64,000 nucleotides of DNA from an uncultured Bacilli bacterium (GTDB lineage Bacteria; Bacillota_I; Bacilli_A; RF39; UBA660): positions 5,070 to 69,069 of the forward strand of contig CALVSW010000006.1 of NCBI GenBank assembly GCA_944359625.1, written 5' to 3'. The translations under genes were made by a program, and so were the position numbers. This document shows positions 3,150 to 33,998 of this stretch, one piece after another. Positions within the stretch are counted from its first letter, which is position 1; the number at the start of each line of letters is the position of its first letter. The notes beneath the pieces were generated by a model. That model had not been told where the DNA came from and did no database searches. It saw only the letters and a program-made list of their open reading frames with translations.

Positions 3150-3989
3150 CTATTTAACTTTTTGAAAATAAAGATCATAACTATTATTATGTTGTTCTTT
3201 AATTGTATTTAGTATTTCTTCTTTATTAGTTTCTCCAAAACCTACAAAGGTTTTTGTTCCTATTACTATAAAAGGAACAGAAGAAATATCCTCATCTAAA
3301 GCATTAGCAAACTTATTCATTAAATTATAATTATCTTGGTTATACCATACTTCAAATGTATTAAGATTATATAAATCTTTATAATCTTCATTTTCTTCTA
3401 AGAAATTTAAAAATTCTTCACAATGAGGACAGCCATTACCCCAGAAAAGATAAATATTTATTTTGTTAGTATCATACTTTATATCTTCTAAAGAAGTATC
3501 AGGAATATCAATAGTAACAATATCATAATAATTTGTATTAGTATTAGTATTGTTAATATTTTTTTCTGGTAAAGATATATATTCTTTTAACCAAGAGTTA
3601 AAATCATCATTATCATTTATATTTAGAGTGGCTATTAATTTTCCTTTACTAAATATAGCTAAAGCTGGATAATTTTTGATTTTATCTTCTAATATAGTAT
3701 CTTTTAAATCAAAATAAGATATTTTATAAAAACTTATTTGATAATTATTCATAAAATCATATAATTCTTGTTCAAAATCATTAGATTTTATAGATTCATT
3801 ACAATTTATAAAAACTAAAAAATTTTCTTTATTATTAATTAGTTCTTTTAACTTATCAACATTTAAATTAATAAAATTGGCACTTTCTAAATATACATCA
3901 TCTAAACTAATTAATTTATCTTGATTAGAAGAAGCAGTCATTATAATTGTACTACATAAAAGGATAATTATTATTATTATTTTCTTCAT
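3150..3989 (-). CDS. exported thioredoxin-fold thiol-disulfide oxidoreductase-like protein (CPHC)
   Basis: N-terminal signal/anchor (KKIIIIIILLCSTIIMTASS). The C-terminal domain carries WGNGCPHCEEF and a cis-Pro-type motif SVPFIVIG. The start lies 2 nt after the stop of the upstream XRE gene. Confidence 0.6.
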   Translation of the reverse strand: MKKIIIIIILLCSTIIMTASSNQDKLISLDDVYLESANFINLNVDKLKELINNKENFLVFINCNESIKSNDFEQELYDFMNNYQISFYKISYFDLKDTILEDKIKNYPALAIFSKGKLIATLNINDNDDFNSWLKEYISLPEKNINNTNTNTNYYDIVTIDIPDTSLEDIKYDTNKINIYLFWGNGCPHCEEFLNFLEENEDYKDLYNLNTFEVWYNQDNYNLMNKFANALDEDISSVPFIVIGTKTFVGFGETNKEEILNTIKEQHNNSYDLYFQKVK

Positions 3990-7710: not shown

Positions 7711-8598
7711 TTATACAATATAATAGTCCTTATCAAATCCCATTACTTTTAATACTTCATCAATAGTAATTGAAGTTAGATTATCTTTTAATGTATCTAA
7801 TTCTTTTTTAATTAAACTTTTCATTTCTATTGCTTGATCATTTTCTAAAAGTAATTCTAATGATTTAATTATTATATACATATTGGTATGTAATGCTTTA
7901 TCAGGAGATTTTTTAGTTTTATCTAGTCTAATATAGAATGTACTTCTATAAGTATATAATCTATCATCATGAGCTGCTATATTACGAACTGAAGTTAAAT
8001 TACCAAGAATATTTTTTAATATTCTATCATTAATATGAAATTGCTTACTTATTTCTTGTCTATCTTGTTGTTTCATTAAACCATAAAACTTACTTATAGT
8101 TCCAAGTGATAATAATTTAGTAACAACCCAAGGTGGAACAAATCCATATTTACTCATATAATGAGTTATTGCATCATGTTTACCATTTCCTTTATCAATT
8201 TCATTTTTTATTTCTTCAATTAATCTTTCTATATGTTCTAAGTTAGAATCATCATCCTTTAAATCAAAATTATTGATATCTAAATAATCTTCTAATCCAT
8301 ACTTTTCAGCAAATAAATTGGCAATTTTAGTTTTTATTACTGCCTCTATTTCAAGAATATATTTAAGCATTATTATCTTTAAATTTTTATCAAACTTATA
8401 CATTGCAAATATTTCTTCAAATGAAGCATTACCTTTATAATTATCTCCTATTTTAAATATCCATTTATAGGAGTTTACTATTGAATAATAAGAATACTTT
8501 TCAATTAAATATCTAGCATTATTATCATCTTTTATTGATACACCTTTTGAAGTTAATATTTCTATTAATTCATTTGTTGATTTAAATTCTTTAACCAT
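7711..8598 (-). CDS. Abi_2 (AbiD/AbiF-like) abortive-infection family protein
   Basis: The N-terminus KSTNELIEILTSKGVSIKDDNNARYLIEKYSYYSIVNSY and the downstream NIAAHDDRLY are typical of Abi-like (Abi_2) phage-resistance proteins. A strong AGGAGGTAAAA RBS precedes the start. Confidence 0.7.
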   Translation of the reverse strand: MVKEFKSTNELIEILTSKGVSIKDDNNARYLIEKYSYYSIVNSYKWIFKIGDNYKGNASFEEIFAMYKFDKNLKIIMLKYILEIEAVIKTKIANLFAEKYGLEDYLDINNFDLKDDDSNLEHIERLIEEIKNEIDKGNGKHDAITHYMSKYGFVPPWVVTKLLSLGTISKFYGLMKQQDRQEISKQFHINDRILKNILGNLTSVRNIAAHDDRLYTYRSTFYIRLDKTKKSPDKALHTNMYIIIKSLELLLENDQAIEMKSLIKKELDTLKDNLTSITIDEVLKVMGFDKDYYIV

Positions 8599-8787: not shown

Positions 8788-9984
8788 ACATGTTTCTTTG
8801 CCAAAAAGGAGGGATGAAAAATGAAATCATGGAAACATTTGACATTTGAACAAAGAAAAGTTATATCTAACGGAATATCTCATAAGTATAAATTAAAAGA
8901 AATTGCTGAAGCTTTAGGCTATGATCCAACTAGTATATCTAAAGAAGTTAAGCGAAACAGAGAACAAATTACAATAGGAAAAAATGTTACTGATTGTAAT
9001 AAAATAAACAGATGGCCTTTCGTTTGTACAGGCTGTAATAAAAGATATAATAATCAATGTTGTTTTACTAAATATAAATATGATGCAAAAAAAGCTCAAG
9101 ATAAGGCTGATGTTAATTTAGTTAATTCTAGAAAAGGAATTGATATTACCTCTGAAGAATTTCAAAAGCTAGATAAAATAGTTAAAGATGGTGTTGATGA
9201 TAAGAAGTCCATTTATCAAATAACCATAGAAAATAAAGATGAAATAGATAAATCAGTAACTACTATATATAGATATGTGAATAAAGGCTATTTAACAACA
9301 AAAAGAATGGACTTACCTTATGCGGTTACTTACAAGAAAAGAAACCATAATAAAAAGTATGAGTATTCTGAAAATAAGAAAATTGACAGAACAGGTCATA
9401 CTTATATTGATTATCTTGCCTATATACACAAACATCCAGGAATCTATGTCTGGCAACTAGATTTTCTTGGATCCATTAAGACAGATAACAATAATATTTT
9501 ATCATTAATTCTACCAGATTTGCAATTTTGTTTACTTGACTTAATAAAAAATCCTAACCAAGAAAAAGTAGTAGAGTTTTTTGATGAACTAGAGGAAAAG
9601 ATTGGAATTGATGCATTCGAGGAATTAATACCAGTTATTTTAACTGACAGAGATCCTAATTTTACTGATATTGAAGGTATATGTTTTTCAAAAATAACAG
9701 GAGAAGAAAGATGTAAATTATTCTTTTGTGATGCTTATGTATCTAATCAAAAGCCAAACGTAGAAAATTTAAACAAACAATTAAGATTATTTTTTCCAAA
9801 AGGTAAAACTATAGACAAATACACAAAACAAGATATAAAAAACATTAACGAAACACTTCTAAATAGGCCATTAAAATCATTGGATAGTTATACTCCAAAA
9901 GAGGCTTTTATTAATGTATTTGATGAAGATTTATTTAATAAACTGTTTTAGCTAGCTAAAATCGTTTTGGGCAAAGAAACAAAC
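8788..9984 (+). mobile_element. IS30-family insertion sequence (ends approximate)
   Basis: The transposase ORF is tightly bracketed by the inverted repeat tgtttctttgccaaaa (8791-8806) and ttttgggcaaagaaaca (9966-9982). The resulting size of about 1.2 kb fits the IS30 family. A second, outer imperfect IR pair leaves the ends uncertain. Confidence 0.6.
8821..9951 (+). CDS. IS30-family DDE transposase
   Basis: N-terminal HTH HLTFEQRKVISNGIS...IAEALGYDPTSISKEVKRNRE. The catalytic region has WQLDFLG, LTDRDPNF and NVENLNKQLRLFFPKGK, and the C-terminus reads NRPLKSLDSYTPKEAF. Confidence 0.85.
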   Translation: MKSWKHLTFEQRKVISNGISHKYKLKEIAEALGYDPTSISKEVKRNREQITIGKNVTDCNKINRWPFVCTGCNKRYNNQCCFTKYKYDAKKAQDKADVNLVNSRKGIDITSEEFQKLDKIVKDGVDDKKSIYQITIENKDEIDKSVTTIYRYVNKGYLTTKRMDLPYAVTYKKRNHNKKYEYSENKKIDRTGHTYIDYLAYIHKHPGIYVWQLDFLGSIKTDNNNILSLILPDLQFCLLDLIKNPNQEKVVEFFDELEEKIGIDAFEELIPVILTDRDPNFTDIEGICFSKITGEERCKLFFCDAYVSNQKPNVENLNKQLRLFFPKGKTIDKYTKQDIKNINETLLNRPLKSLDSYTPKEAFINVFDEDLFNKLF

Positions 9985-10217: not shown

Positions 10218-11212
10218 CTAGTCTTTAGCCTCTGTTTCATTTAATACTTTTTCAACTTCACTAATTAATTGCTCTTTATTAGGAATATAATAAGTATAAG
10301 TAGAAGCAAAAATATTATTAGATAAACCACCTAAAGCATATTCCATAGCTACTTCTTTTTTACTCTTACAAAGAATAATTCCTATTGATTTATTATCATA
10401 TTCATCATTTACTTCAGCATTATAGTAATTTAAATACATATTCATTTGTCCTGCGTATTCTGGCTTCATGGTACCAATTTTCAAATCTATTAAAACATAG
10501 CATTTTAAGATTTTATTATAGAAAACCATATCTACATAATAATGAGTATTCCCCAAAGTTACTCTTTGTTGTGTTCCTACAAACATAAATCATTTACCTA
10601 ATTCAAGTAGAAATTCTTCCATATGATGAACTAATTTTCTTTCTAAATCTTTCTCCAAAATAGGTTTTGGTTCTTTAATATCTAAAAATTCAAAAACATA
10701 TGGTTCTTTTAAAATATCATCAGGTTTGGCTAATGTTTGCCCAACTTTTGATAATTCATATACCTTTTCTTTATTATTTTGTCCATCAGATAACAATAAT
10801 CTTTCATATAATGAAGTTTCTAATTGTCTTTTTAACTCTCTAACACTCCAATTTGAATTAACGCATTCTTTTTCATAAAAACTTCTTTCATCATCGTTCT
10901 CAATACTTAATAATTCACAATAATGTGACCAGCTCAATTTAACAGACAGTGTCTGTTGTTTTGGGTATTTAAGATAAAATCTACGCATATATTGTAGATT
11001 TGATACCGAAAAACCAGAGCCTAAAATTTTTCTTAATTCTTTTGAAAGCTCCTTTAAGACTTGTTTACCATATTCAGCTTTAATATTTCCATTTTACTCG
11101 TTCTCAACAATAATTCTACCAACATCCAATAAGCTAGTAACATTGTATTATTTACTTCATAAGCAATTTTATTTCTACTACTAATAATTATATCTTTAAT
11201 TTCTTCAATCAT
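10218..11212 (-). pseudogene. DUF1016 / YhcG-like PDDEXK nuclease, inactivated by three lesions
   Basis: Two in-frame track ORFs (10590-10988 and 10218-10586) are separated by a TGA within LELGK*FMFVGTQ. Upstream lie an in-frame TAA (VENE*NGNIKAEYGKQ) and a 1-nt frameshift after LLAYW. The C-terminus VDMVFYNKILKCYVLIDLKIG...GQMNMYLNYY is the PD-(D/E)xK core. Confidence 0.7.
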
Positions 11213-11430: not shown

Positions 11431-11790
11431 TGGTGGAGCAGAGGAGAATTGAACTCCTGTCCAAATTACTTGAATATAAATATCTACAAGTTTAGTTAAT
11501 ATTTAAAATTTATTATAAAACTGGCTTTAACTTACCTATTTTATAACTAGATTAGTTAAATTCGTTATACTACCCTAATCAAATAATATAATATAACTTA
11601 TATCTATAAATCTTTAGCTTAACCTATAAGTGAAATTAAGTAAAGATACTCCATTACTTTATATTAAGCAAAAACAGGAGTAGCATTGAAACTATAAGTT
11701 TCGTCATTTAATTTTAATTTGTCGTTTTAAGTCATACAAGACTACTTGCAATCTATACTCAACATAACCTGTCGAAACCATTACTGCCCC
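11431..11790 (-). ncRNA. ssrA: tmRNA (transfer-messenger RNA)
   Basis: The minus strand starts GGGGCAGTAATGGTTTCGACAGG and ends GGACAGGAGTTCAATTCTCCTCTGCTCCACCA (T-arm, acceptor stem and CCA). It contains an internal tag reading frame ...DKLKLNDETYSFNATPVFA-TAA. Confidence 0.9.
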
Positions 11791-11830: not shown

Positions 11831-11859
11831 TTGACAGTAAATTACTCATATGCTATAAT
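11831..11859 (+). promoter_or_regulatory. perfect consensus sigma-A promoter of the 11912-16260 operon
   Basis: TTGACA (11831-11836), 17 nt spacer, TATAAT (11854-11859). The track ORF start at 11831 is actually the TTG of the -35 box. Confidence 0.7.
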
Positions 11860-11911
11860 TCAAGTAGGAAGATACATTGTGTCTATTAAGATTCAGGGGG
11901 GAATGATAATA

Positions 11912-12970
11912 ATGAAAATAGATATTGATGAATTTTATAAGGAATTAGGAATTTCTAAAAGAGCAAGTAAAAATACTATTAGGGAAGCTTATACTAGATG
12001 GTTTTTAGAATGGGATAGTAAAGATACTCATACTGAAGAAGATTATGAGAAATTATATTATATGTGCAAAATTAAAAATGAATTATTAAATGCAGAAAAA
12101 AAAGATAATGATTACCAACGTGTAACTGATATGGAAGAAGCACCAGTTAAAACAGTAACATCTGGGAAATTATTAATAGCTTCTTTAGGTACAATTGCTT
12201 TAACAACTGCTATTGTAGCTACTTTATTAAATTCAGAAATTAATAAAACTAAAGAAAATAATAAAGAGATAAATTCTAGTACTAGTATAGCAGCTAGTAG
12301 TGATACTAATTTAATAGAAGAAACTAATGAAGCAAGTACTAGTGTTGTTTTAAATGATTATGTAAATGATAATGATTTTATGGAAAATTTAGCACAAGAA
12401 GAATGGCAAAAAATAAGTTTAATTAAAAATAGTGATAGTACTTTTGCACCAAGTATATATGATTCTAATGTATTGTATGAAATTATTAGATGGATTCATC
12501 ATGGAGAACCAATATATACAGGAGATTGGATTTTATCTAATGAAGATGCTAATGCAAGATTATCAGAATTAGTAAGCACTTCATATGATGTATCCCAATT
12601 ATATAAAGGAACTAGCATTTATTCTAATATTAATAAGTTAAGAAATGCTATTAGTAAAATAACACCTGAAAACGGGAGTTATAATGATGAATTAGATGCG
12701 TATAAAGATTTAAAAGATGTCTTAGAAAATATGGATACTAATAACTTTGTTGAAGTAATTACTATTAGAGTATTAGCAAAATATATGATATCTGATGCTC
12801 GTTACACTACGATGCGTGATATTGCTTTTGATAAATCAAATTTAAGTTCTGCTGATGTTCAATTATGTAAAGATGCTTTTAATAAAGTAAATGATGATAC
12901 AATATTTAGTATTAGTCTTCAAAATGCGATAAATGAAGATAAAGCTAATAAAGGGAGAGTTTTATCATAA
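11912..12970 (+). CDS. single-pass membrane protein with a degenerate J-domain-like N-terminus
   Basis: ATG 11912 follows a GGGGGGA RBS. FYKELGISKRASKNTIREAYTRW resembles DnaJ helices I-II, but the HPD position reads WDS. A TM helix (LLIASLGTIALTTAIVATLL) is followed by an external domain of about 220 aa. Confidence 0.6.
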   Translation: MKIDIDEFYKELGISKRASKNTIREAYTRWFLEWDSKDTHTEEDYEKLYYMCKIKNELLNAEKKDNDYQRVTDMEEAPVKTVTSGKLLIASLGTIALTTAIVATLLNSEINKTKENNKEINSSTSIAASSDTNLIEETNEASTSVVLNDYVNDNDFMENLAQEEWQKISLIKNSDSTFAPSIYDSNVLYEIIRWIHHGEPIYTGDWILSNEDANARLSELVSTSYDVSQLYKGTSIYSNINKLRNAISKITPENGSYNDELDAYKDLKDVLENMDTNNFVEVITIRVLAKYMISDARYTTMRDIAFDKSNLSSADVQLCKDAFNKVNDDTIFSISLQNAINEDKANKGRVLS

Positions 12971-12993: not shown

Positions 12994-13929
12994 ATGAAAA
13001 TAAATAAGTATGAATATGATGATGATCAAAAATTAACAAATGAAGGTAATAAGATTATAAAAGGTTTAAGTATTTCGGCACTTTCTTTAATAATTTTATT
13101 AAATTCCTGTTCAATATATAATAGTTTAGTGAATAATAATTCAGAAAAAAATTTAGAAAAAGATGCTAAAAAGATAACTAGTTCAAGTGTGGTTGCATCC
13201 GTAGCTAGTAATCCTAATTACGAGATTAATTATAGTTATGTAGAAGAATTTTATAATAATTTATTAGAGTATAAAACAAGATATGGTAATGATTTTGCAA
13301 GTTCTATAAATACTTTAGATGATGCTAAGAGTTTATATAATTTTATTATAAAATTTGATGATATGTATGCTTATTTTAATGGTACTACTAATATAACTTC
13401 TATAGAAGAATATGAAAATATATTAAATTCTTTTTATAATTCGTGCATAAAATATGATGTAAAACCTTTCTTAAGTATAATGTTTAAAGATAAAGGTTAT
13501 TATTATCAATTATTAAGTGAAGCTGAAGGATTAGTTTATAATTTAAAAAATTCATTAAATAATGATTATTCTATTGCTAATCAATACTTTGCTTGGTTAG
13601 GGACAAATTTATGGTATGGTAAAACATCAGTTATTACTAATAAGATTAGTGCACCATATATCTATTTATTAATGGTTCAATATACTGATTATAAAAAATG
13701 TGGTAATATGAGTTTAGCTATAAAATATGGGAAGAATAATGTTTTAGATATAGATGGCCGGTATGATTTTACTTGTCCTGCTGGAGTAGATCAATTTATT
13801 AGAGGATATAAGGTTTATGATGATAATGGTAATTTAATAGATAAAAATAAATTTCATGAAGTTTTAATCGATTTAATTAATAATCAATGTCAAATATATC
13901 AACAAAATGAATTAAAAAGAAGTAGGTAG
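12994..13929 (+). CDS. N-terminally anchored (possibly lipoprotein) envelope protein, function unknown
   Basis: AGGAGAT RBS. The hydrophobic N-terminus LSISALSLIILLNSCS has a lipobox-like Cys. No family recognised. Confidence 0.6.
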   Translation: MKINKYEYDDDQKLTNEGNKIIKGLSISALSLIILLNSCSIYNSLVNNNSEKNLEKDAKKITSSSVVASVASNPNYEINYSYVEEFYNNLLEYKTRYGNDFASSINTLDDAKSLYNFIIKFDDMYAYFNGTTNITSIEEYENILNSFYNSCIKYDVKPFLSIMFKDKGYYYQLLSEAEGLVYNLKNSLNNDYSIANQYFAWLGTNLWYGKTSVITNKISAPYIYLLMVQYTDYKKCGNMSLAIKYGKNNVLDIDGRYDFTCPAGVDQFIRGYKVYDDNGNLIDKNKFHEVLIDLINNQCQIYQQNELKRSR

Positions 13930-13938
13930 GTGGATTTT

Positions 13939-16260
13939 ATGTACGATAATAATGAATTTAGAATTCATATTGAATGGAAGAATGTTTTAATTAAATTAGT
14001 TTTGATTATATTATTTGTTTTATTGTTAGTATGGGTACTTCCAATTCCTAAATTAGATACTTTTTATAATAGAGTATTTAATGATAATATTAATACTATG
14101 AAAGAAGCTGCTAAAAATTATTTTCTTAGCAATAATTTACCTGAAAATATTGGTGAGTCTAATACTATTAAATTAGGTGATATGGTAAATAAAAATTTAA
14201 TAGTTGAATTTACTGATAAAAATAATAATAAATGTAGTGATAGCAATTCGCTTTCAACTATTACTAAAACAGATTCTAATGAATATGTTCTTAAAACCAT
14301 GTTAACATGTGGGGAAGAAAATGATTATGTACTAGAAACATTAATAAATTATACAAATAATAATAATGTAGCAAATAATAATGTGGTTAATGGTAATAGT
14401 AATGATAATAATGTTGATAAAAAACCGACAAGTAATTCTTTAAATAATGAAGAAGATGATGAAGAAGATTTAATATTAGAAAATGGTGTATATGATAAAG
14501 ATGGTAATTTAACAGGAATTACGGAATATGAATTTAAGAAACCAATTTATAATACTACTAATACTTATACTTGTCCACAAGGTTATGTTTTAAAGGGAAA
14601 AACATGTTATAAATATGAAAGTGGAGAAACTATTTCTGCTACGCCTTTATATTTTGATGATATAACAACTATAAAAGATGCTTTAAAAAATGTTACTGGA
14701 TCTTATAAAGTTTATGCTGATGCTATAAAAGAAAAAGATAAAGTAAATAAAACTTGCCCAGATGGGTATACATTAAATAATGGTGTATGTTATACATATA
14801 TTGAGGCTACTGTAAAACCAGGCACTACTAAATACGAATGTCCTGCTGGTTATAGTTTAAAAGGGACAAAATGTATTGATGAAATTGAACCTAATTATAG
14901 AGTAATTCATGAAAATGAATATAAATGTCCTGATGGGTATACATTAAGTGGTTCAAAATGTACTATTACGAAGAATGCTCAAGTAAAATATGAATCTGAA
15001 AAAGAATATTATTGTAGTTATGCTTCTGATAGATTATTAGGAACTAGTTGTTATTATAATGCAACTTATCATTCTGGTGGTAGTAGTTGTAGTTGTAATC
15101 CTGGTGATCAATTAGTAGGTAGTATTTGTTATAAAACTGAGTCTTATGCTCCAACTTACACTCCAGGAAGTCAATCTTGTTCTTGTCCTAGTGGTACTAC
15201 TGCATCTGGCAATCAATGTGTATCAACTTATACAGCTACTAATAATTCCCATTGGGGTAATCCAACTGTAATTCAATCAAATAAATTAATGAATGAATAT
15301 AATAATGGGTCTGAAAAACTAGAATATACTGGAAAATATAATTGTAGTTTAAGTGGATGTACTTATTATTATAATAAATATAAATGGGAAAAATCTTATA
15401 GTTGTCCAAATGGTGGTAGTCTAAGTGGTACTACTTGTTATAAGTATAGTCAACCTAATTGTAGTACCGGTGGTGGTAGTTATAAGTGTAGTGATGGAAC
15501 ATATCCAGTAAATAATGTATGTTATAGAAAAACTACATATAATGCTAATTGTTCTACTTCTAATGGGTATTATACATGTTCTAAAAAAGGAACATTATTA
15601 GGAACTAGTTGCTATTATGCTGCAAGTTATAGAACTAATTCAAGTAGTTATGAATATTGTGATACTGGATATACTTTAAGTAATCATAAGTGTAGTCGCA
15701 CTGTGAATGCTGAACTTGTTAATGCAGATTTAAAGATTCCTTATTGCGATAATGATAATGGTTATTATTTAGACGATAATAATATGTGTGTTAAAACTAT
15801 TGATGCTACTAAAAATACAACAGAAACTCAATATACATGTCCTGAAGGATATACTAAAGAAGGTACAACATGTTATAAAACAATTGAACCTACTGAAGAA
15901 ATAACTTATAAATATTCTTGTCCTGAAGATTATGAATTAACAAATAAAGATAATAAGCCTATTTGTTTTAAAGAAATTGAAAGTACGACAGAATATTATT
16001 GTGAAGATAAAGAAGCTACTCTTCAAGGTGATAAATGTATTGTTAATAAAAAAGGTGGTTTAAAAGGATATACTTGTCCTAAAGACTATATATTAAATGG
16101 TGATAAATGTGTATTAGAAAGAACTACATGCATTGATGCTACTTTAGAGACAAATACAACTACTACATATGAATATACATGGAGTACTAATAAGTATTTA
16201 GAAGGTTGGACACCAACTGGTAATACTAGAGTTACTAGTGCTAATGATTATATAAAATAA
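13939..16260 (+). CDS. N-terminally anchored cysteine-hairpin repeat protein (about 17 CPxGYxLxGxxC units)
   Basis: The start is probably ATG 13939, behind GGTGG (the track uses GTG 13930, directly after the previous stop). Order of parts: TM helix VLIKLVLIILFVLLLVWVL, a roughly 100-aa head domain with one Cys pair, an N/D/E-rich linker, then the repeat array. Confidence 0.75.
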   Translation: MYDNNEFRIHIEWKNVLIKLVLIILFVLLLVWVLPIPKLDTFYNRVFNDNINTMKEAAKNYFLSNNLPENIGESNTIKLGDMVNKNLIVEFTDKNNNKCSDSNSLSTITKTDSNEYVLKTMLTCGEENDYVLETLINYTNNNNVANNNVVNGNSNDNNVDKKPTSNSLNNEEDDEEDLILENGVYDKDGNLTGITEYEFKKPIYNTTNTYTCPQGYVLKGKTCYKYESGETISATPLYFDDITTIKDALKNVTGSYKVYADAIKEKDKVNKTCPDGYTLNNGVCYTYIEATVKPGTTKYECPAGYSLKGTKCIDEIEPNYRVIHENEYKCPDGYTLSGSKCTITKNAQVKYESEKEYYCSYASDRLLGTSCYYNATYHSGGSSCSCNPGDQLVGSICYKTESYAPTYTPGSQSCSCPSGTTASGNQCVSTYTATNNSHWGNPTVIQSNKLMNEYNNGSEKLEYTGKYNCSLSGCTYYYNKYKWEKSYSCPNGGSLSGTTCYKYSQPNCSTGGGSYKCSDGTYPVNNVCYRKTTYNANCSTSNGYYTCSKKGTLLGTSCYYAASYRTNSSSYEYCDTGYTLSNHKCSRTVNAELVNADLKIPYCDNDNGYYLDDNNMCVKTIDATKNTTETQYTCPEGYTKEGTTCYKTIEPTEEITYKYSCPEDYELTNKDNKPICFKEIESTTEYYCEDKEATLQGDKCIVNKKGGLKGYTCPKDYILNGDKCVLERTTCIDATLETNTTTTYEYTWSTNKYLEGWTPTGNTRVTSANDYIK
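14560..16135 (+). repeat. intragenic array of about 17 degenerate 25-45-aa coding repeats, each with a 10-14-residue Cys-Cys loop
   Basis: Examples: YTCPQGYVLKGKTCYKYE, KTCPDGYTLNNGVCYTYIE, YECPAGYSLKGTKCIDEIE, YKCPDGYTLSGSKCTITK, CSCNPGDQLVGSICYKTE, YTCPEGYTKEGTTCYKTIE, YTCPKDYILNGDKCVLE. Confidence 0.85.
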
Positions 16261-16265
16261 TAATT

Positions 16266-16296
16266 AAGAAGTGATAAAATAAATCACTTCTTTTAT
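16266..16296 (+). terminator. intrinsic terminator of the three-gene operon
   Basis: aagaagtgat-aaaataa-atcacttctt followed by a T-rich tract, 6 nt after the stop codon. Confidence 0.7.
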
Positions 16297-16320: not shown

Positions 16321-16566
16321 TTAAAGCTGTGATTTTAATATCCTTGTTAATATAATAATAAGTTCTGGATCCGTAACAGGTTTTACAAAAACATCATTAC
16401 CATCAATTATTTCTTCAATAATTTTAACCTTATTTGGAATTATATCCTTATTATCATTTACACCCATTACTAGAAAATACTTTATACCACCATACATTGT
16501 TTCATTTAATAGAATATATTTTTCATTATTTTCCAAAGTTATTACGGTATTAGTTCTTAATCCCAT
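16321..16566 (-). CDS. small conserved-looking protein, paralog family member A (81 aa)
   Basis: It shares a pattern (L.N..KY.IL...Y.G..Y......D......V....V.D.EL..IL) with the ORFs at 48557-48814 and 51152-51409. It lies 14 nt downstream of the coiled-coil gene. Confidence 0.6.
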   Translation of the reverse strand: MGLRTNTVITLENNEKYILLNETMYGGIKYFLVMGVNDNKDIIPNKVKIIEEIIDGNDVFVKPVTDPELIIILTRILKSQL

Positions 16567-16580
16567 AGTATCTCTCCTAA

Positions 16581-17483
16581 CTAAGCTGCTCTACCAAGTG
16601 TAAGAGTGTTATCTTTTTCTTGAGAATCACCTTGAAATAAATCTTGAGCATTAACTACATTTACAACCTTTTGTCTTCCAGTATCTTCAGAAACCGTACT
16701 CATTGATTCTTTATTATCTTCACCAGAAGTCATTCTTCGTAAATCTCCTAAAGCATCAGCAAACGCAATTGTATTATTCGTATCATCCTTTTTTTCTTCA
16801 GATAAACCAACCGGAGTAGTTACAGACGTTTTAGCTTCTGGAAAAGCAATGGCATTATCTTCAAATGGATTACTATTATCATCATTAAATAGGCCACTTA
16901 AACTATCTAAAGTAGTTGAATTATCATCAGATGAAGAAGTTAAAGATGAATTGTTATCTGTAGATAATTCATCAAAATTTACAGTCTTTAATTCAGGTTC
17001 TGGAGTCTTTAGGACTGGAGACTCAACTGGAGTTTCAATGGTACCAAATTTAATTTCTTGACCTTGAGAGTTAATCTCAGAGTTTTTTAATTCTGATTGA
17101 AAATCCTTACTAATAGCTTTGATTACTTTTCCTTTAACATCTTGAATTGCATTTATAGCATCAGCAATTCCATAATCAGTAGTTGAAAAACTATTATAAG
17201 CTGCTAACTGACTATCTAAATCAATTTCACTTTTATTTAATCTAGCTTCTGTATCTTTAATAGCATCTCCACTGTATTTTATATGTCTTCCTTGAACACT
17301 AACTAACTCATATAGATAACCTGCTAAATCAATTATTTCATTAGTTTTTAAGTGGTTTTGATAAACTTTTTCGGCTAAAACTAATTGCTTATCTAGTTTA
17401 CCCTTTTCTTCATTAATTTCGTCTATTCTTCTTTTTAAATCATTTACTGCTTGTTCTGTATCACTAATAACTTTCTCCATCAT
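16581..17483 (-). CDS. coiled-coil protein with a long acidic S/T/D/N-rich disordered tail
   Basis: The N-terminal roughly 150 aa are heptad-like (EQAVNDLKRRIDEINEEKGKLDKQLVLAEKVYQ). The C-terminal half is low complexity. The start is probably ATG 17483 (the track uses GTG 17492). Confidence 0.55.
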   Translation of the reverse strand: MMEKVISDTEQAVNDLKRRIDEINEEKGKLDKQLVLAEKVYQNHLKTNEIIDLAGYLYELVSVQGRHIKYSGDAIKDTEARLNKSEIDLDSQLAAYNSFSTTDYGIADAINAIQDVKGKVIKAISKDFQSELKNSEINSQGQEIKFGTIETPVESPVLKTPEPELKTVNFDELSTDNNSSLTSSSDDNSTTLDSLSGLFNDDNSNPFEDNAIAFPEAKTSVTTPVGLSEEKKDDTNNTIAFADALGDLRRMTSGEDNKESMSTVSEDTGRQKVVNVVNAQDLFQGDSQEKDNTLTLGRAA

Positions 17484-17549
17484 ATTAATCACGCCCTTTA
17501 TCTATCTTACAATACTTAAAGTTTATCACAATATGATGTTATTTGCAAC

Positions 17550-33236: not shown

Positions 33237-33998
33237 TTATGGCAATTTAACTTTATTATCCATTGCTAATTTATCAGTAATAGTAGCTAAGAATTCTGAA
33301 TTAGTTGGTTTAGCCCTATCAAAATCAACAGAATGACCAAATATTTCTTCCATTAAATCATAATCGCCCCTAGTCCAACTTACCTCGATTGCATGGCGAA
33401 TTGCTCTTTCAACCCGTGATGCCGTAGTATTATACTTTTCGGCAATATATGGATAAACTTCTTTCGTAATTCCTCCTAGATGTTCCGAATTATTATACAT
33501 TAGTTCAATTGAATCGCGAATATATTGATATCCTTTAATATGACTTGGCATACCTAAATCATGTAATAATTTAGATAATCCTTTCTTTAAAGCTTGGTTA
33601 TTAGAAATTTCATTATTAATAGGTATATTAACACTATCAATAATTCTTTCTTCTAAAATTTTCAAATCAATATTTTTATACAAGAAAAAAGATATATCAT
33701 AAATAGATAAAGAAGTTATAAAACTTGTATTATTAAAATTAGAATGAACAATTGTTTTACAATTAATATTTTCTTGTTTCATATATTTTAAAATACCAAA
33801 ACCATCTAATAATGGTAATATCGTATCTAAAACAATTACATCTATATCTTTATGATATTCTTTTATTATATTTAATGCTTTTAAGCCATCTGTAGCTTCA
33901 TATTTAATACTTACAACTTGGTTACTACTGAAATACTCCTTAATCATTTTAATAGACTTTTCATTATCTACTACTAAAACATTAATTACATTTTTCAT
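33237..33998 (-). CDS. spo0A: sporulation master regulator Spo0A
   Basis: The C-terminal domain is near-identical in motif content to Bacillus Spo0A: PSHIKGYQYIRDSIELMYNN...ITKEVYPYIAEKYNTTASRVERAIRHAIEVSWTRG...AKPTNSEFLATITDKL. The receiver domain has VLDTILPLLDG. Confidence 0.9.
   Translation of the reverse strand: MKNVINVLVVDNEKSIKMIKEYFSSNQVVSIKYEATDGLKALNIIKEYHKDIDVIVLDTILPLLDGFGILKYMKQENINCKTIVHSNFNNTSFITSLSIYDISFFLYKNIDLKILEERIIDSVNIPINNEISNNQALKKGLSKLLHDLGMPSHIKGYQYIRDSIELMYNNSEHLGGITKEVYPYIAEKYNTTASRVERAIRHAIEVSWTRGDYDLMEEIFGHSVDFDRAKPTNSEFLATITDKLAMDNKVKLP

Follow-up and report, generated by a model that had tools for sequence, protein, structure and literature searches.

The window analysed here, a stretch of 64,000 nucleotides from an uncultured Bacilli bacterium of the RF39 lineage, carries a three-gene operon that extends from a promoter at 11831-11859 to a terminator at 16266-16292, and whose third gene encodes a large cysteine-rich protein that we refer to as the stalk protein. 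The neighbours of the operon in the window are tmRNA, rplQ, rpoA and other housekeeping genes, and both in the window and in one related locus (L005) the operon adjoins the rplQ end of the ribosomal protein cluster. The features of the locus are listed below, with residue numbers of the stalk protein counted from the GTG at 13930.

11831..11859, + strand: promoter of the three-gene operon (TTGACA, 17 nt spacer, TG-extended TATAAT, 12/12 matches)
11912..12970, + strand: gene 1, bitopic partner (alternative ATG at 11903; listed ORF 11831..12970)
12994..13929, + strand: gene 2, second partner (short cytoplasmic tail, TM or lipoprotein-like anchor (LLNSC), extracytoplasmic domain)
13939..16260, + strand: gene 3, stalk gene (773 aa from ATG; ORF listed from the GTG at 13930)
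13975..14043, + strand: signal-anchor TM helix of the stalk protein (residues 16-38; hydropathy scan, AlphaFold2 helix 16-36)
14044..14349, + strand: membrane-proximal alpha/beta head (residues 39-140, invariant pair Cys102-Cys127)
14350..14484, + strand: disordered Asn/Asp/Glu-rich linker (residues 141-185, pLDDT 28-37)
14485..16110, + strand: all-beta stalk (residues 186-727; 16 C-x10-15-C hairpin units and one C-x4-C hairpin)
15220..15402, + strand: non-repeat insert in the stalk (residues 431-491; Trp/Tyr-rich long hairpin, Cys472-x4-Cys477)
16111..16257, + strand: conserved C-terminal tip (residues 728-776; motif YxYxWS....L.GWT.TG.TR)
16266..16292, no strand assigned: bidirectional intrinsic terminator (10-bp stem, six bases past the stop codon of the stalk gene)

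The stalk ORF (13930..16260, + strand) is intact and encodes 776 aa counted from the GTG. On sequence grounds the ATG at 13939 is the likely true start; its Met does not vary among 99 homologues, it is preceded at 5 nt by an AGGTGG ribosome-binding site, and the protein as called in the public record (P0001) begins MYDNNEF. The original prediction had placed a chain of cysteine-hairpin modules at 14560-16135, corresponding to residues 211-736, behind an N-terminal TM anchor, a small head and an Asn/Asp/Glu-rich linker, and these three N-terminal elements were recovered by the hydropathy scan and AlphaFold2. A conserved cytoplasmic tail of 15 residues precedes the TM helix, and Met4, Tyr5 and Trp16 are invariant in the N-terminus. 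The head is the best-conserved part of the protein (conservation 0.65) and the linker the least conserved (0.35). Modelled alone, the head reached a pLDDT of 84.8 and a pTM of 0.64, and neither fold (Foldseek) nor profile searches of the PDB gave it a significant match. The tip, which contains the unpaired Cys734, is modelled as three long strands and has invariant residues at Tyr749, Trp751, Ser752, Gly759, Trp760, Thr763 and Gly764.

A type IV pilin-like head was also considered: the N-terminus, MYDNNEFRIHIEWKNVLIKLVLIILFV, has neither G/FTLxE nor Glu5. The best pilin matches to the head were ComZ (Foldseek E 0.84, TM 0.31) and, as the only PDB match to the head profile, geopilin (hmmsearch E 0.6, over the helix alone); neither was significant, and because the Foldseek comparison of the head with the PDB did not reach significance the pilin idea was dropped as unproven. 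A sortase-anchored (LPXTG) surface protein was ruled out, as the C-terminus (...GNTRVTSANDYIK) has no LPXTG motif or hydrophobic tail and the anchor is N-terminal. The hydrophobic anchor of 22 residues, the position of every Cys C-terminal to it and the existence of partner variants with Tat signals together place the conserved domains outside the cytoplasm. The stalk protein is a type-II (N-in, C-out) single-pass membrane protein, and we infer that it is exposed at the cell surface.

Cysteine makes up 5.3% of the stalk protein (41 residues), compared with 1.22% across the window's 44 long ORFs. Seventeen loops, 16 of the form C-x10-15-C and one C-x4-C, lie between residues 215 and 727, and the chain of modules proposed from the sequence proved to be real when compared with 20,000 shuffles of the stalk protein itself. 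There are 12 C-x10-C loops (mean of the shuffles 1.25, maximum 8) and 13 C[PSDN]x[GD][YGDT] motifs (mean 0.44, maximum 5), and all of the example peptides quoted in support of the modules occur in the protein. The loop type is YxCPxGYxLxGxxC, the family consensus unit is T.YtCP.GYTLnGtkCtKt..at, and the unit logo across the family reads C-P(89%)-x-G(95%)-Y(61%)-T-L-x-G(84%)-x-x-C. A C-x-C arrangement, said to occur in several units, is present, but in only two of them (Cys387/389 and Cys417/419). No DNA-level tandem repeats were found within the stalk gene, so the units are old and diverged rather than products of recent slippage.

The cysteines are conserved as pairs. At approximately 40% mean identity, 26 of the 41 Cys columns are invariant, and in the variable loops of 60 sequences the Cys pair was gained or lost jointly in 577 of 588 cases, with no single cysteine; in a set of 86 sequences the pair was gained or lost jointly in 389 of 400, with 3 single. 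AlphaFold2 modelled the stalk protein at a mean pLDDT of 78 and a pTM of 0.28 that leaves the global shape uncertain; approximately 590 residues came out as all-beta, and the insert at residues 431-491 was the most confidently modelled part (pLDDT 87-93). The local context is identical for all 17 Cys pairs, a succession of strand, turn, 3-residue mini-strand, turn and strand, with both cysteines of each unit at the base of one hairpin. This consistency is what the original prediction had asked of a structural model, and it backs the description of a membrane-anchored extracytoplasmic protein built of Cys-clamped hairpin modules; the disulfides within the units are predicted.

The window also encodes, at 3150-3989, an exported protein of thioredoxin fold that contains a CPHC motif and has sub-threshold thioredoxin matches only; as a candidate disulfide-forming enzyme it speaks for the feasibility of disulfides. 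The carriers of the stalk gene are gut anaerobes, an observation that was counted against the disulfide reading. Metal binding by the paired cysteines in place of disulfides is extremely unlikely: nothing specific speaks for it beyond a presumed reducing habitat, each unit has just two Cys, 10 residues apart, and lacks His or further Cys as ligands, the protein lies outside the cytoplasm, the cysteines are placed at the base of one hairpin in the model, and what the units match in cEGF is its disulfide 'c' hairpin.

The stalk gene is the last of a conserved transcription unit. In most related loci the cassette is preceded by an exact TTGACA whose spacer measures 16-18 nt (mostly 17, usually TG-extended), and the promoter matches at 12/12 positions in 18 loci, the window among them; what is listed as a TTG 'start' for the ORF at 11831 is in fact the -35 box. 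Between promoter and stalk gene lie one or two partner genes, their products membrane- or Tat-targeted, and in 65 of 86 sequences (85 loci and the window) the gene immediately before the stalk gene is a co-directional partner. Gene 1, which is kept upstream of the stalk gene in related loci, encodes an N-terminal cytoplasmic J-like domain, a TM helix (residues ~87-106 from the ATG at 11912, or 114-134 of the listed ORF) and an extracytoplasmic helical domain. It scores 20.1 bits against Pfam DnaJ (PF00226), below the gathering score of 27.8, and 9.7e-6 against NCBIfam DnaJ_bact, and its orthologues carry precomputed DnaJ matches. The HPD motif between J-domain helices II and III is needed to stimulate Hsp70, and it is absent from the window protein and approximately 29 of 30 orthologues, being present only in that of locus L018, so the gene 1 product is unlikely to drive chaperone Hsp70/DnaK.

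The extracytoplasmic domain of gene 2 is paralogous to that of gene 1, as a jackhmmer search from gene 1 recruits gene 2 proteins. A homologue search with the gene 2 protein returned only four close relatives, and the wider family was recovered from gene neighbourhoods; its alignment has the conserved motifs YG.FA.SF, YY.SC and CP, and in some clades a twin-arginine signal (SRRDFLKG) replaces the TM helix. The gene 2 product had no match in Pfam, PDB or PHROG, the partner profile matched only a myosin coiled coil in the PDB (E 0.039), and PADLOC models did not match any of the three operon proteins. The idea that an odd stalk Cys bonds an odd partner Cys found no support, the partner ectodomains having no parity bias (33 even, 32 odd).

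The stalk protein represents a real, conserved and uncharacterized membrane-anchored family of uncultured low-GC gut Bacilli. It has at least 282 close homologues and relatives in at least 240 GTDB species, and an exhaustive search returned 2859 cluster representatives at E<=1e-3 and 572 at E<=1e-30. The 85 family loci examined have a GC content of 24-33%, and every one derives from a MAG or CAG assembly of a gut sample, with bacteria of the human, rabbit, chicken, mouse and ruminant gut represented. No second copy of the stalk gene was seen in any assembly, and tblastn found no copy on Firmicutes plasmids or phages and no match in 50,697 phage genomes. Scans of the stalk protein against Pfam, NCBIfam, PHROGs and PADLOC gave no matches, and its sequence had none in the PDB. 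Foldseek with the full model found nothing significant in the PDB, the top structures being long beta-hairpin assemblies at an rmsd above 25 A, and one strong match in BFVD, an unnamed viral protein (A0A6M6DDH0, 1.6e-12). A three-unit synthetic consensus used as query in a word-indexed protein search recovered only 10 short fragments, and our literature search on the family, on EGF-like repeats in Firmicutes and on TraN repeat arrays found nothing specific.

The original prediction could not assign the repeat to a named bacterial family. The unit indeed has no name of its own, but it is no orphan: the family is built from an existing bacterial building block, identified by sequence, that also forms arrays in TraN, the annotated mating-pair stabilization proteins of sphingomonad conjugative plasmids, in giant Ig-like proteins and in an RHS protein. 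The stalk array matched residues 222-744 of the annotated TraN of Sphingopyxis sp. DBS4 plasmid pDB-1 (WP_306999122.1; 1058 aa, 66 Cys, 21 C-x10-C loops) with a BLASTP E-value of 4e-32 at 29% identity (tblastn 1e-23), although likeness between repeat arrays may overstate relatedness. This TraN is encoded in a TrbI-TraW-TraU-TrbC-TraN-TraF-TraH-TraG operon, and tblastn with the stalk array gave matches on 25 plasmids. TraN has been described (PMC9246713) as an outer-membrane protein of extended shape, rich in beta structure and fully disulfide-bonded, which touches porins of the recipient with its tip. The TraN unit, ..YSCP.GyTLsGttC..t.tqpAt, is nearly identical to the stalk consensus, the arrays align over approximately 520 residues, a non-repeat insert interrupts both, and both proteins are exported and Cys-rich. 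The repeat period differs, being mostly 25 residues in TraN and 28 in the stalk protein, and whereas TraN has a signal peptide, a C-terminal F_T4SS_TraN domain, a place in the Gram-negative donor outer membrane and a transfer operon, the stalk protein is anchored in the membrane by its N-terminus and has a head and tip of its own, other partners and a chromosomal gene in low-GC Bacilli.

The same unit forms tandem arrays in giant secreted proteins, namely P0148 (4088 aa, 86 C-x10-C loops), P0178, P0273 (DUF4165 and Big_3_3) and a 3267-aa 'Ig-like domain-containing protein' of Shewanella aestuarii, and in the RHS protein P0196. It occurs in Proteobacteria of soil and sea, which live without an animal host. 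The giant Ig-like carriers adjoin F-type transfer genes. The giant and RHS carriers resemble the stalk protein in using tandem Cys-hairpin arrays as an extracellular repeat, and differ in having other terminal domains, signal peptides rather than a signal anchor, and medium- or high-GC Gram-negative-type hosts; they are uncharacterized.

An echo of eukaryotic EGF-like domains had also been noted, and it is real but partial. Five of ten isolated stalk modules matched Pfam cEGF, the complement C1r-like EGF domain (PF12662; E 0.003-0.056, 13.7-17.7 bits) over profile positions 5-20 of 24, and the homologues P0037 (54 bits), P0012 (48), P0009 (39) and P0065 exceed the gathering score of 26.6 bits; the whole stalk protein gave no cEGF match at E<=1. 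The shared element is the C-x2-G-Y-x-L-x(4-5)-C hairpin, which in EGF carries the C5-C6 ('c') disulfide, and by sequence the stalk unit is the counterpart of the C5-C6 half of a complement-type EGF domain. An EGF domain has six Cys bonded 1-3, 2-4 and 5-6, whereas stalk units have two (three in two units) and neither the N-terminal half nor the C1-C3 and C2-C4 disulfides. With only this half present no six-Cys EGF domain is possible, and approximately 16 residues are too few to separate descent from convergence.

We favour, at a probability of roughly 0.5, a reading in which the protein is a surface stalk of disulfide-clamped hairpins that holds the conserved tip away from the membrane. The all-beta region of approximately 540 residues, which would be rod-like, comprises some 17 hairpin units, each with one predicted disulfide in a C-P-x-G-Y-x-L-x-G-x-x-C knuckle. 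By analogy with the TraN, giant Ig-like and RHS carriers this array may act as a stiff disulfide-stapled spacer, although its function in sphingomonad TraN itself is putative. Protein length correlates with the number of units (r = 0.91, range 560-1005 aa), which is what a spacer role predicts. The array would position the Trp-rich C-terminal tip off the membrane, probably across the cell wall or past it, where it could touch a second cell, a polymer of the wall or the surface of a host, and such display would need no sortase-type wall anchor. Driven by the consensus sigma-A promoter, the stalk gene is co-transcribed with its one or two bitopic or Tat-exported partners, and the products probably form one membrane complex. 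The G5-E repeats of SasG/Aap, rod-like Gram-positive surface stalks, we take to be a functional analogy only. They too are tandem small flat beta modules with a proposed long stiff rod projecting a terminal domain, but they have no sequence or detected fold relationship to the stalk protein, and they are sortase-anchored at the C-terminus and free of disulfides, whereas the stalk protein has an N-terminal TM helix and appears disulfide-dependent.

A further reading, which we consider unlikely, is that the stalk protein and its HPD-less J-like partner form a core, constitutive trans-envelope contact machine for cell-cell attachment, TraN-like, in reduced-genome and apparently sortase-poor RF39/RFN20-like Bacilli, with the conserved cytoplasmic tail and J-like domain relaying contact on the outside to the cytoplasm. 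Were this so, a new system of cell-cell contact would be added to those of Gram-positive bacteria, and there would be a handle on why these abundant lineages resist cultivation.

Alternatively, the protein could be a core envelope scaffold or ruler, in which the rod and its partners set or sense the membrane-wall spacing, or organize wall growth, in lineages with reduced peptidoglycan machinery. We regard this as a less likely explanation. Strong conservation, with no second copy seen in any assembly, is a pattern met more often in core envelope components than in classical adhesins, and this copy number, the strongly conserved head and cytoplasmic tail, the housekeeping-type promoter and the location beside rplQ in the window and L005 all suit a scaffold. 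So do the losses reported in related orders: many PBPs in RFN20, RF39 and ML615J-28, and sortases too in RFN20 and ML615J-28 (PMC10868615). However, the unit occurs elsewhere in proteins that reach other cells (TraN, RHS), a conserved tip with a variable number of units suits tip presentation better than a fixed ruler, and no wall-synthesis gene is linked to the operon in the loci examined.

It is distinctly unlikely that the stalk protein is a Gram-positive TraN counterpart, stabilizing cell pairs for DNA transfer or another contact-dependent exchange. The stalk array is homologous to genuine TraN arrays in F-type transfer operons, and JGI labels two family members TraN. However, the defining C-terminal TraN domain (PF06986, TIGR02750; ~240 residues) is absent from the stalk protein in Pfam and NCBIfam scans, and in long TraN proteins these models cover the C-terminal 250-320 residues and not the array. 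Enterobacterial F-like TraN was not matched by the stalk array. No tra or trb genes occur near the stalk gene in the window or in the other genome contexts examined, where the neighbours are housekeeping genes that differ between genomes, and the gene is chromosomal across its species range, with no copy found by tblastn on Firmicutes plasmids or phages.

The chance is slim that the protein acts in sporulation or at the spore surface, for instance in a layer cross-linked through cysteines. Cys-rich proteins are common in spore coats, a Spo0A-like regulator is encoded in the window, and cotJB and cotJC lie beside the gene in one related locus. Set against these are the N-terminal membrane anchor, a promoter of conserved sigma-A consensus rather than sporulation-sigma type, cysteines arranged as intra-unit pairs and not as cross-linking motifs, and partner genes that encode membrane or Tat proteins; the spore or cell-surface lattice role first suggested for the protein gained no specific support. 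Equally among the early suggestions, mimicry of host EGF-domain proteins to engage host receptors now looks very unlikely. Homologues match Pfam cEGF, EGF_Tme5 and Sushi and the carriers live in animal guts, but the EGF fold is half present, the unit extends to bacteria with no animal host, and the highly conserved gene, of which no second copy was seen in any assembly, is found in the bacteria of many host species without the diversification expected of a host-interaction factor.

Firmicutes tend to exclude cysteine from exported proteins, a trend shown for aerobic species (PMC2823432), and the suspicion that such heavy cysteine use is unusual in an exported Firmicute protein was justified. 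The stalk protein is a clear exception to this exclusion, and oxidative folding capacity is therefore predicted in these anaerobes. The carrier lineages are abundant in animal and human guts, with no cultured members among the genomes found, and the stalk protein is among their largest conserved envelope proteins, present without annotation. As an extracellular unit the disulfide-clamped hairpin of 25-29 residues is widespread in bacteria, yet no family model describes it; it is common to Firmicutes and to Proteobacterial TraN, RHS and giant Ig-like proteins, and a dedicated profile for it would annotate thousands of proteins and end mislabels such as 'TraN'.

The stalk gene is the last of three co-directional genes in the interval between a promoter and a terminator, arranged as follows, with residue numbers counted from the GTG at 13930:

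11831-11859, + strand: promoter, a perfect match to TTGACA-17-TG-TATAAT
11912-12970, + strand: gene 1, encoding a TM helix and an extracytoplasmic domain, with a weak match to the J domain
12994-13929, + strand: gene 2, with a TM or lipoprotein-like anchor and an outer domain paralogous to that of gene 1
13930-16260, + strand: gene 3, the stalk ORF
15088-15090, 15178-15180 and 16129-16131, + strand: stalk gene codons for Cys387, Cys417 and Cys734
16266-16292: terminator with a 10-bp stem

Most related loci have an exact -35 box upstream of the cassette, with a spacer of 16-18 nt (mostly 17) and usually a TG extension; the promoter reaches 12/12 matches in 18 loci, the window counted in. From this recurrence of the promoter, the operon is predicted to be expressed constitutively, during vegetative growth. 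Of 86 sequences (85 loci and the window), 65 have a co-directional partner of the gene 1/2 superfamily directly ahead of the stalk gene, and the genes beyond the cassette vary from genome to genome. In some clades (loci L016, L026, L030, L032 and L033), the partner immediately upstream of the stalk gene carries a twin-arginine signal, SRRDFLKG, in place of the TM anchor, which provides independent support for an outer domain located outside the cytoplasm. J domains need the HPD tripeptide for Hsp70 activation; it is missing from the J-like domain of gene 1 and from about 29 of 30 orthologues, and is kept only in locus L018.

The stalk ORF is intact and encodes 776 aa counted from the GTG. Translation very probably starts from the ATG at 13939: 99 homologues share this methionine without exception, an AGGTGG ribosome-binding site precedes it by five bases, and the identical protein in the public gene calls starts with MYDNNEF. 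Cysteine makes up 5.3% of the protein (41 residues), against 1.22% across the window's 44 long ORFs. The original prediction had described about 17 cysteine-hairpin modules at 14560-16135, and 17 loops were found inside that range, 16 of them C-x10-15-C and one C-x4-C, spanning residues 215-727. Both the C-x10-C loops (12 observed) and the CPxGY-type motif (13 observed) exceeded expectation: when the protein was shuffled 20,000 times, their means were 1.25 and 0.44 and their maxima 8 and 5, respectively. A search of the stalk gene for tandem repeats at the DNA level found none, and the units are therefore ancient. The cysteine total is odd; odd totals also occur in 95 of the 99 close homologues and in 58 of the 73 homologues of a more diverse set. 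Under simple pairing, Cys387 and Cys417 may be bonded to each other, leaving Cys734 unpaired; the seemingly unpaired state of Cys734, which lies in a TTCIDA motif, suggests that its thiol is free or that it forms a disulfide within a homodimer. A disulfide between stalk and partner was also considered and is unsupported, as the partner proteins have no cysteine parity bias.

The N-terminal TM anchor, small head and Asn/Asp/Glu-rich linker originally proposed were all seen in a hydropathy scan, an AlphaFold2 model built with a 99-sequence alignment, or both. Hydropathy gave a single hydrophobic segment of 22 residues (residues 16-38), which is probably a signal anchor rather than a cleaved signal peptide, being too long for the latter and lacking a cleavage motif. 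The model (mean pLDDT 78.4, pTM 0.28) is of good confidence locally and of poor confidence globally, the pattern that an elongated chain would be expected to give. It places a TM helix at residues 16-36, followed by a head in which a helix (42-66) packs on a small sheet reaching residue 139 and which has the invariant pair Cys102-Cys127, and by a disordered linker (141-180, pLDDT about 30). From residue 186 to the C-terminal end the model is all-beta (64% strand). The setting of the cysteines, whose pairing structure prediction had been proposed to check, was consistent: all 17 pairs of putatively bonded cysteines share one structural context, in which a strand ending at the first cysteine leads through a five-residue turn (P-x-G-Y), a three-residue strand and a two-residue turn (x-G) into a strand beginning just ahead of the second. 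In the model, each unit is thus a hairpin that a single disulfide could close at its base. No fold relative of the head domain was detectable. Among predicted viral structures, Foldseek matched the stalk model to A0A6M6DDH0, an unnamed 981-aa viral protein (E 1.6e-12), and more weakly to a PA14-domain protein of a phage; at the sequence level, tblastn gave no phage homologue.

The whole stalk protein had no match in Pfam or NCBIfam. Five of ten isolated units matched the Pfam complement C1r-like EGF model (cEGF; E 0.003-0.056), always at profile positions 5-20 of 24, and several homologues exceeded its gathering score; weaker homologue matches were to EGF_Tme5, Sushi and the PBCV-1 P7 disulfide subdomain. 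The resemblance to EGF-like domains initially noticed is thus real in part: an EGF domain has six cysteines, whereas the stalk unit corresponds to the C5-C6 half alone. The stalk repeat is a half-EGF-like hairpin, putatively clamped by a disulfide.

The stalk family is real, well conserved and uncharacterised. A word-indexed search gave at least 282 homologues, nearly all unnamed; HMMER over 1.84 billion cluster representatives gave 2859 at E<=1e-3 and 572 at E<=1e-30, and a scan in which a single genome stood for each GTDB species placed relatives in at least 240 species. The locus set (78 kept from that scan and 7 fetched earlier) consists entirely of MAGs or CAG assemblies of 24-33% GC from gut samples of human, rabbit, chicken, mouse and ruminants, under titles including 'Bacilli bacterium', 'Tenericutes', Coprobacillus sp. 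CAG:605, Mycoplasma sp. CAG:956, Clostridium sp. CAG:628 and Candidatus Coprovivens. Nine are titled 'uncultured Muribaculaceae bacterium' (L018, L047, L054, L070, L075, L076, L080, L082 and L085), names that are probably wrong, because these loci carry Bacilli-type genes at 25-33% GC. Among sequences averaging about 40% identity, 26 of 41 cysteine columns are invariant, and variable loops gain or lose both cysteines jointly (577/588 in 60 sequences, none singly; 389/400 in 86, 3 singly; 550/561 in 90, 5 singly). Conservation is highest in the head and TM segment (0.65) and lowest in the linker (0.35), and a Trp-rich motif at the C-terminus, YxYxWS...GWTxTG, is invariant. Family length (560-1005 aa) correlates with unit number (r = 0.91), which fits the behaviour of a spacer.

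The HMMER search also gave proteins matching the array alone, in which the unit, read as SYSCPSGYTLSGTTC...QPAT, is the same as that of the stalk. Four of these (P0187, P0194, P0229 and P0232; 1000-1300 aa) end in an F-type TraN domain (Pfam E 1e-64 to 1e-85); others were an RHS protein (P0196), a DUF4165/Big_3_3 protein (P0273) and unannotated giants of up to 4088 aa with 86 C-x10-C loops. With the window array as tblastn query against 72,556 plasmids, 25 records matched, from Sphingobium, Sphingopyxis, Shewanella, Herbaspirillum, Alteromonas and others, and no enterobacterial F-like TraN protein did. The matches include the annotated TraN of Sphingopyxis sp. DBS4 pDB-1 (1e-23), whose gene lies within a TrbI-TraW-TraU-TrbC-TraN-TraF-TraH-TraG operon; composition-adjusted BLASTP aligned it to the stalk array at 4e-32, with 29% identity over 572 columns. 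The consensus unit of TraN arrays is nearly identical to that of the stalk family. NCBIfam and Pfam TraN models span only the C-terminal 250-320 residues of long TraN proteins, which leaves the array without a dedicated model; in this sense the repeat is, as first stated, not assignable to a named family, but it is no orphan. The shared array accounts for the JGI label 'TraN' on two stalk family members, a name that is wrong for a family with neither TraN domain nor tra context. On Shewanella aestuarii plasmid pPN3F2_1 (L087, 2614-12417), a 3267-aa 'Ig-like domain-containing protein' with 152 cysteines and 30 C-x10-C units directly adjoins lepB and a TrbC-family F-type pilus assembly gene, and may be a giant TraN-like contact protein.

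Several neighbouring features in the window are relevant to folding, sporulation or genomic context:

3150-3989, - strand: 279-aa ORF with a lipoprotein-like signal (LLC) and motif WGNGCPHC, an exported thioredoxin-fold candidate
7711-8598, - strand: Abi_2 abortive-infection-like gene
8821-9951, + strand: IS30-like transposase with HTH_38
10218-10586 and 10590-10988, - strand: two adjacent short ORFs that look like halves of one disrupted gene
11431-11790, - strand: tmRNA gene encoding the tag peptide DETYSFNATPVFA, in the long 'intergenic' gap shortly before the operon promoter
16321-17492, - strand: coiled-coil protein and 81-aa DUF1292-like protein
33237-33998, - strand: response regulator with Spo0A signature SRVERAIRHAIEVSW, read by eye

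The 3150-3989 product has sub-threshold matches to Thioredoxin (23.1 bits), Thioredoxin_2 (22.7 bits) and glutaredoxins (E about 0.02) in Pfam and PDB; with its DsbA-type active site, it is a candidate for the oxidative folding of the stalk. The coiled-coil and DUF1292-like genes follow rplQ beside the cassette both in the window and in the distant relative L005 (4478-5565), the coiled-coil protein having 303 aa and 276 aa, respectively. The cassette site near the ribosomal protein cluster thus appears partly conserved, with differing orientation.

The cell surface, or the space beyond it, is where RHS proteins and giant Ig-like proteins operate. TraN is a cysteine-rich, beta-rich outer-membrane protein whose cysteines are all predicted to be disulfide-bonded and whose tip meets recipient-cell porins, stabilizing mating pairs (PMC9246713). 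As TraN, RHS and giant Ig-like proteins use the unit, and unit number varies freely, we infer by analogy that the array is a stiff, disulfide-stapled spacer. The N-terminal helix would anchor the stalk protein in the membrane, probably in complex with its partner proteins, and the array would keep the conserved C-terminal tip at a distance from the membrane.

Strong conservation, a housekeeping-type promoter and a second copy in no assembly would also suit a core envelope scaffold or ruler, which we consider unlikely. A true TraN-like mating function is very unlikely for a protein that shares the array but has neither a TraN domain nor transfer genes. The Spo0A signature suggests that the organism may be able to sporulate, and cotJ stands beside one homologue (in L006, cotJB and a cotJC-like Mn-catalase gene adjoin the stalk gene); this evidence is circumstantial, and the sigma-A promoter and membrane anchor speak against the spore-surface role once suggested, leaving a sporulation role scarcely probable. 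The receptor-mimic role fares worse: host EGF mimicry is highly improbable for a half-domain that also occurs in soil and marine Proteobacteria. Metal binding by paired cysteines, to which two-Cys units are unsuited, has almost no likelihood.

Aerobic Firmicutes tend to keep cysteine out of exported proteins (PMC2823432), a trend that makes the stalk family an exception and bears out the view that such a cysteine-dense exported protein is unusual for a low-GC Gram-positive. Sortases are reported to be missing from the related orders RFN20 and ML615J-28 (PMC10868615), and a membrane-anchored stalk would offer an alternative means of surface protein display. Overall, the stalk family resembles surface stalk proteins that other bacteria assemble from small modules in tandem, and is not a categorically new system. 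Its value lies in annotation and in the biology of uncultured gut Bacilli, in which, we infer, it would serve as a surface spacer.
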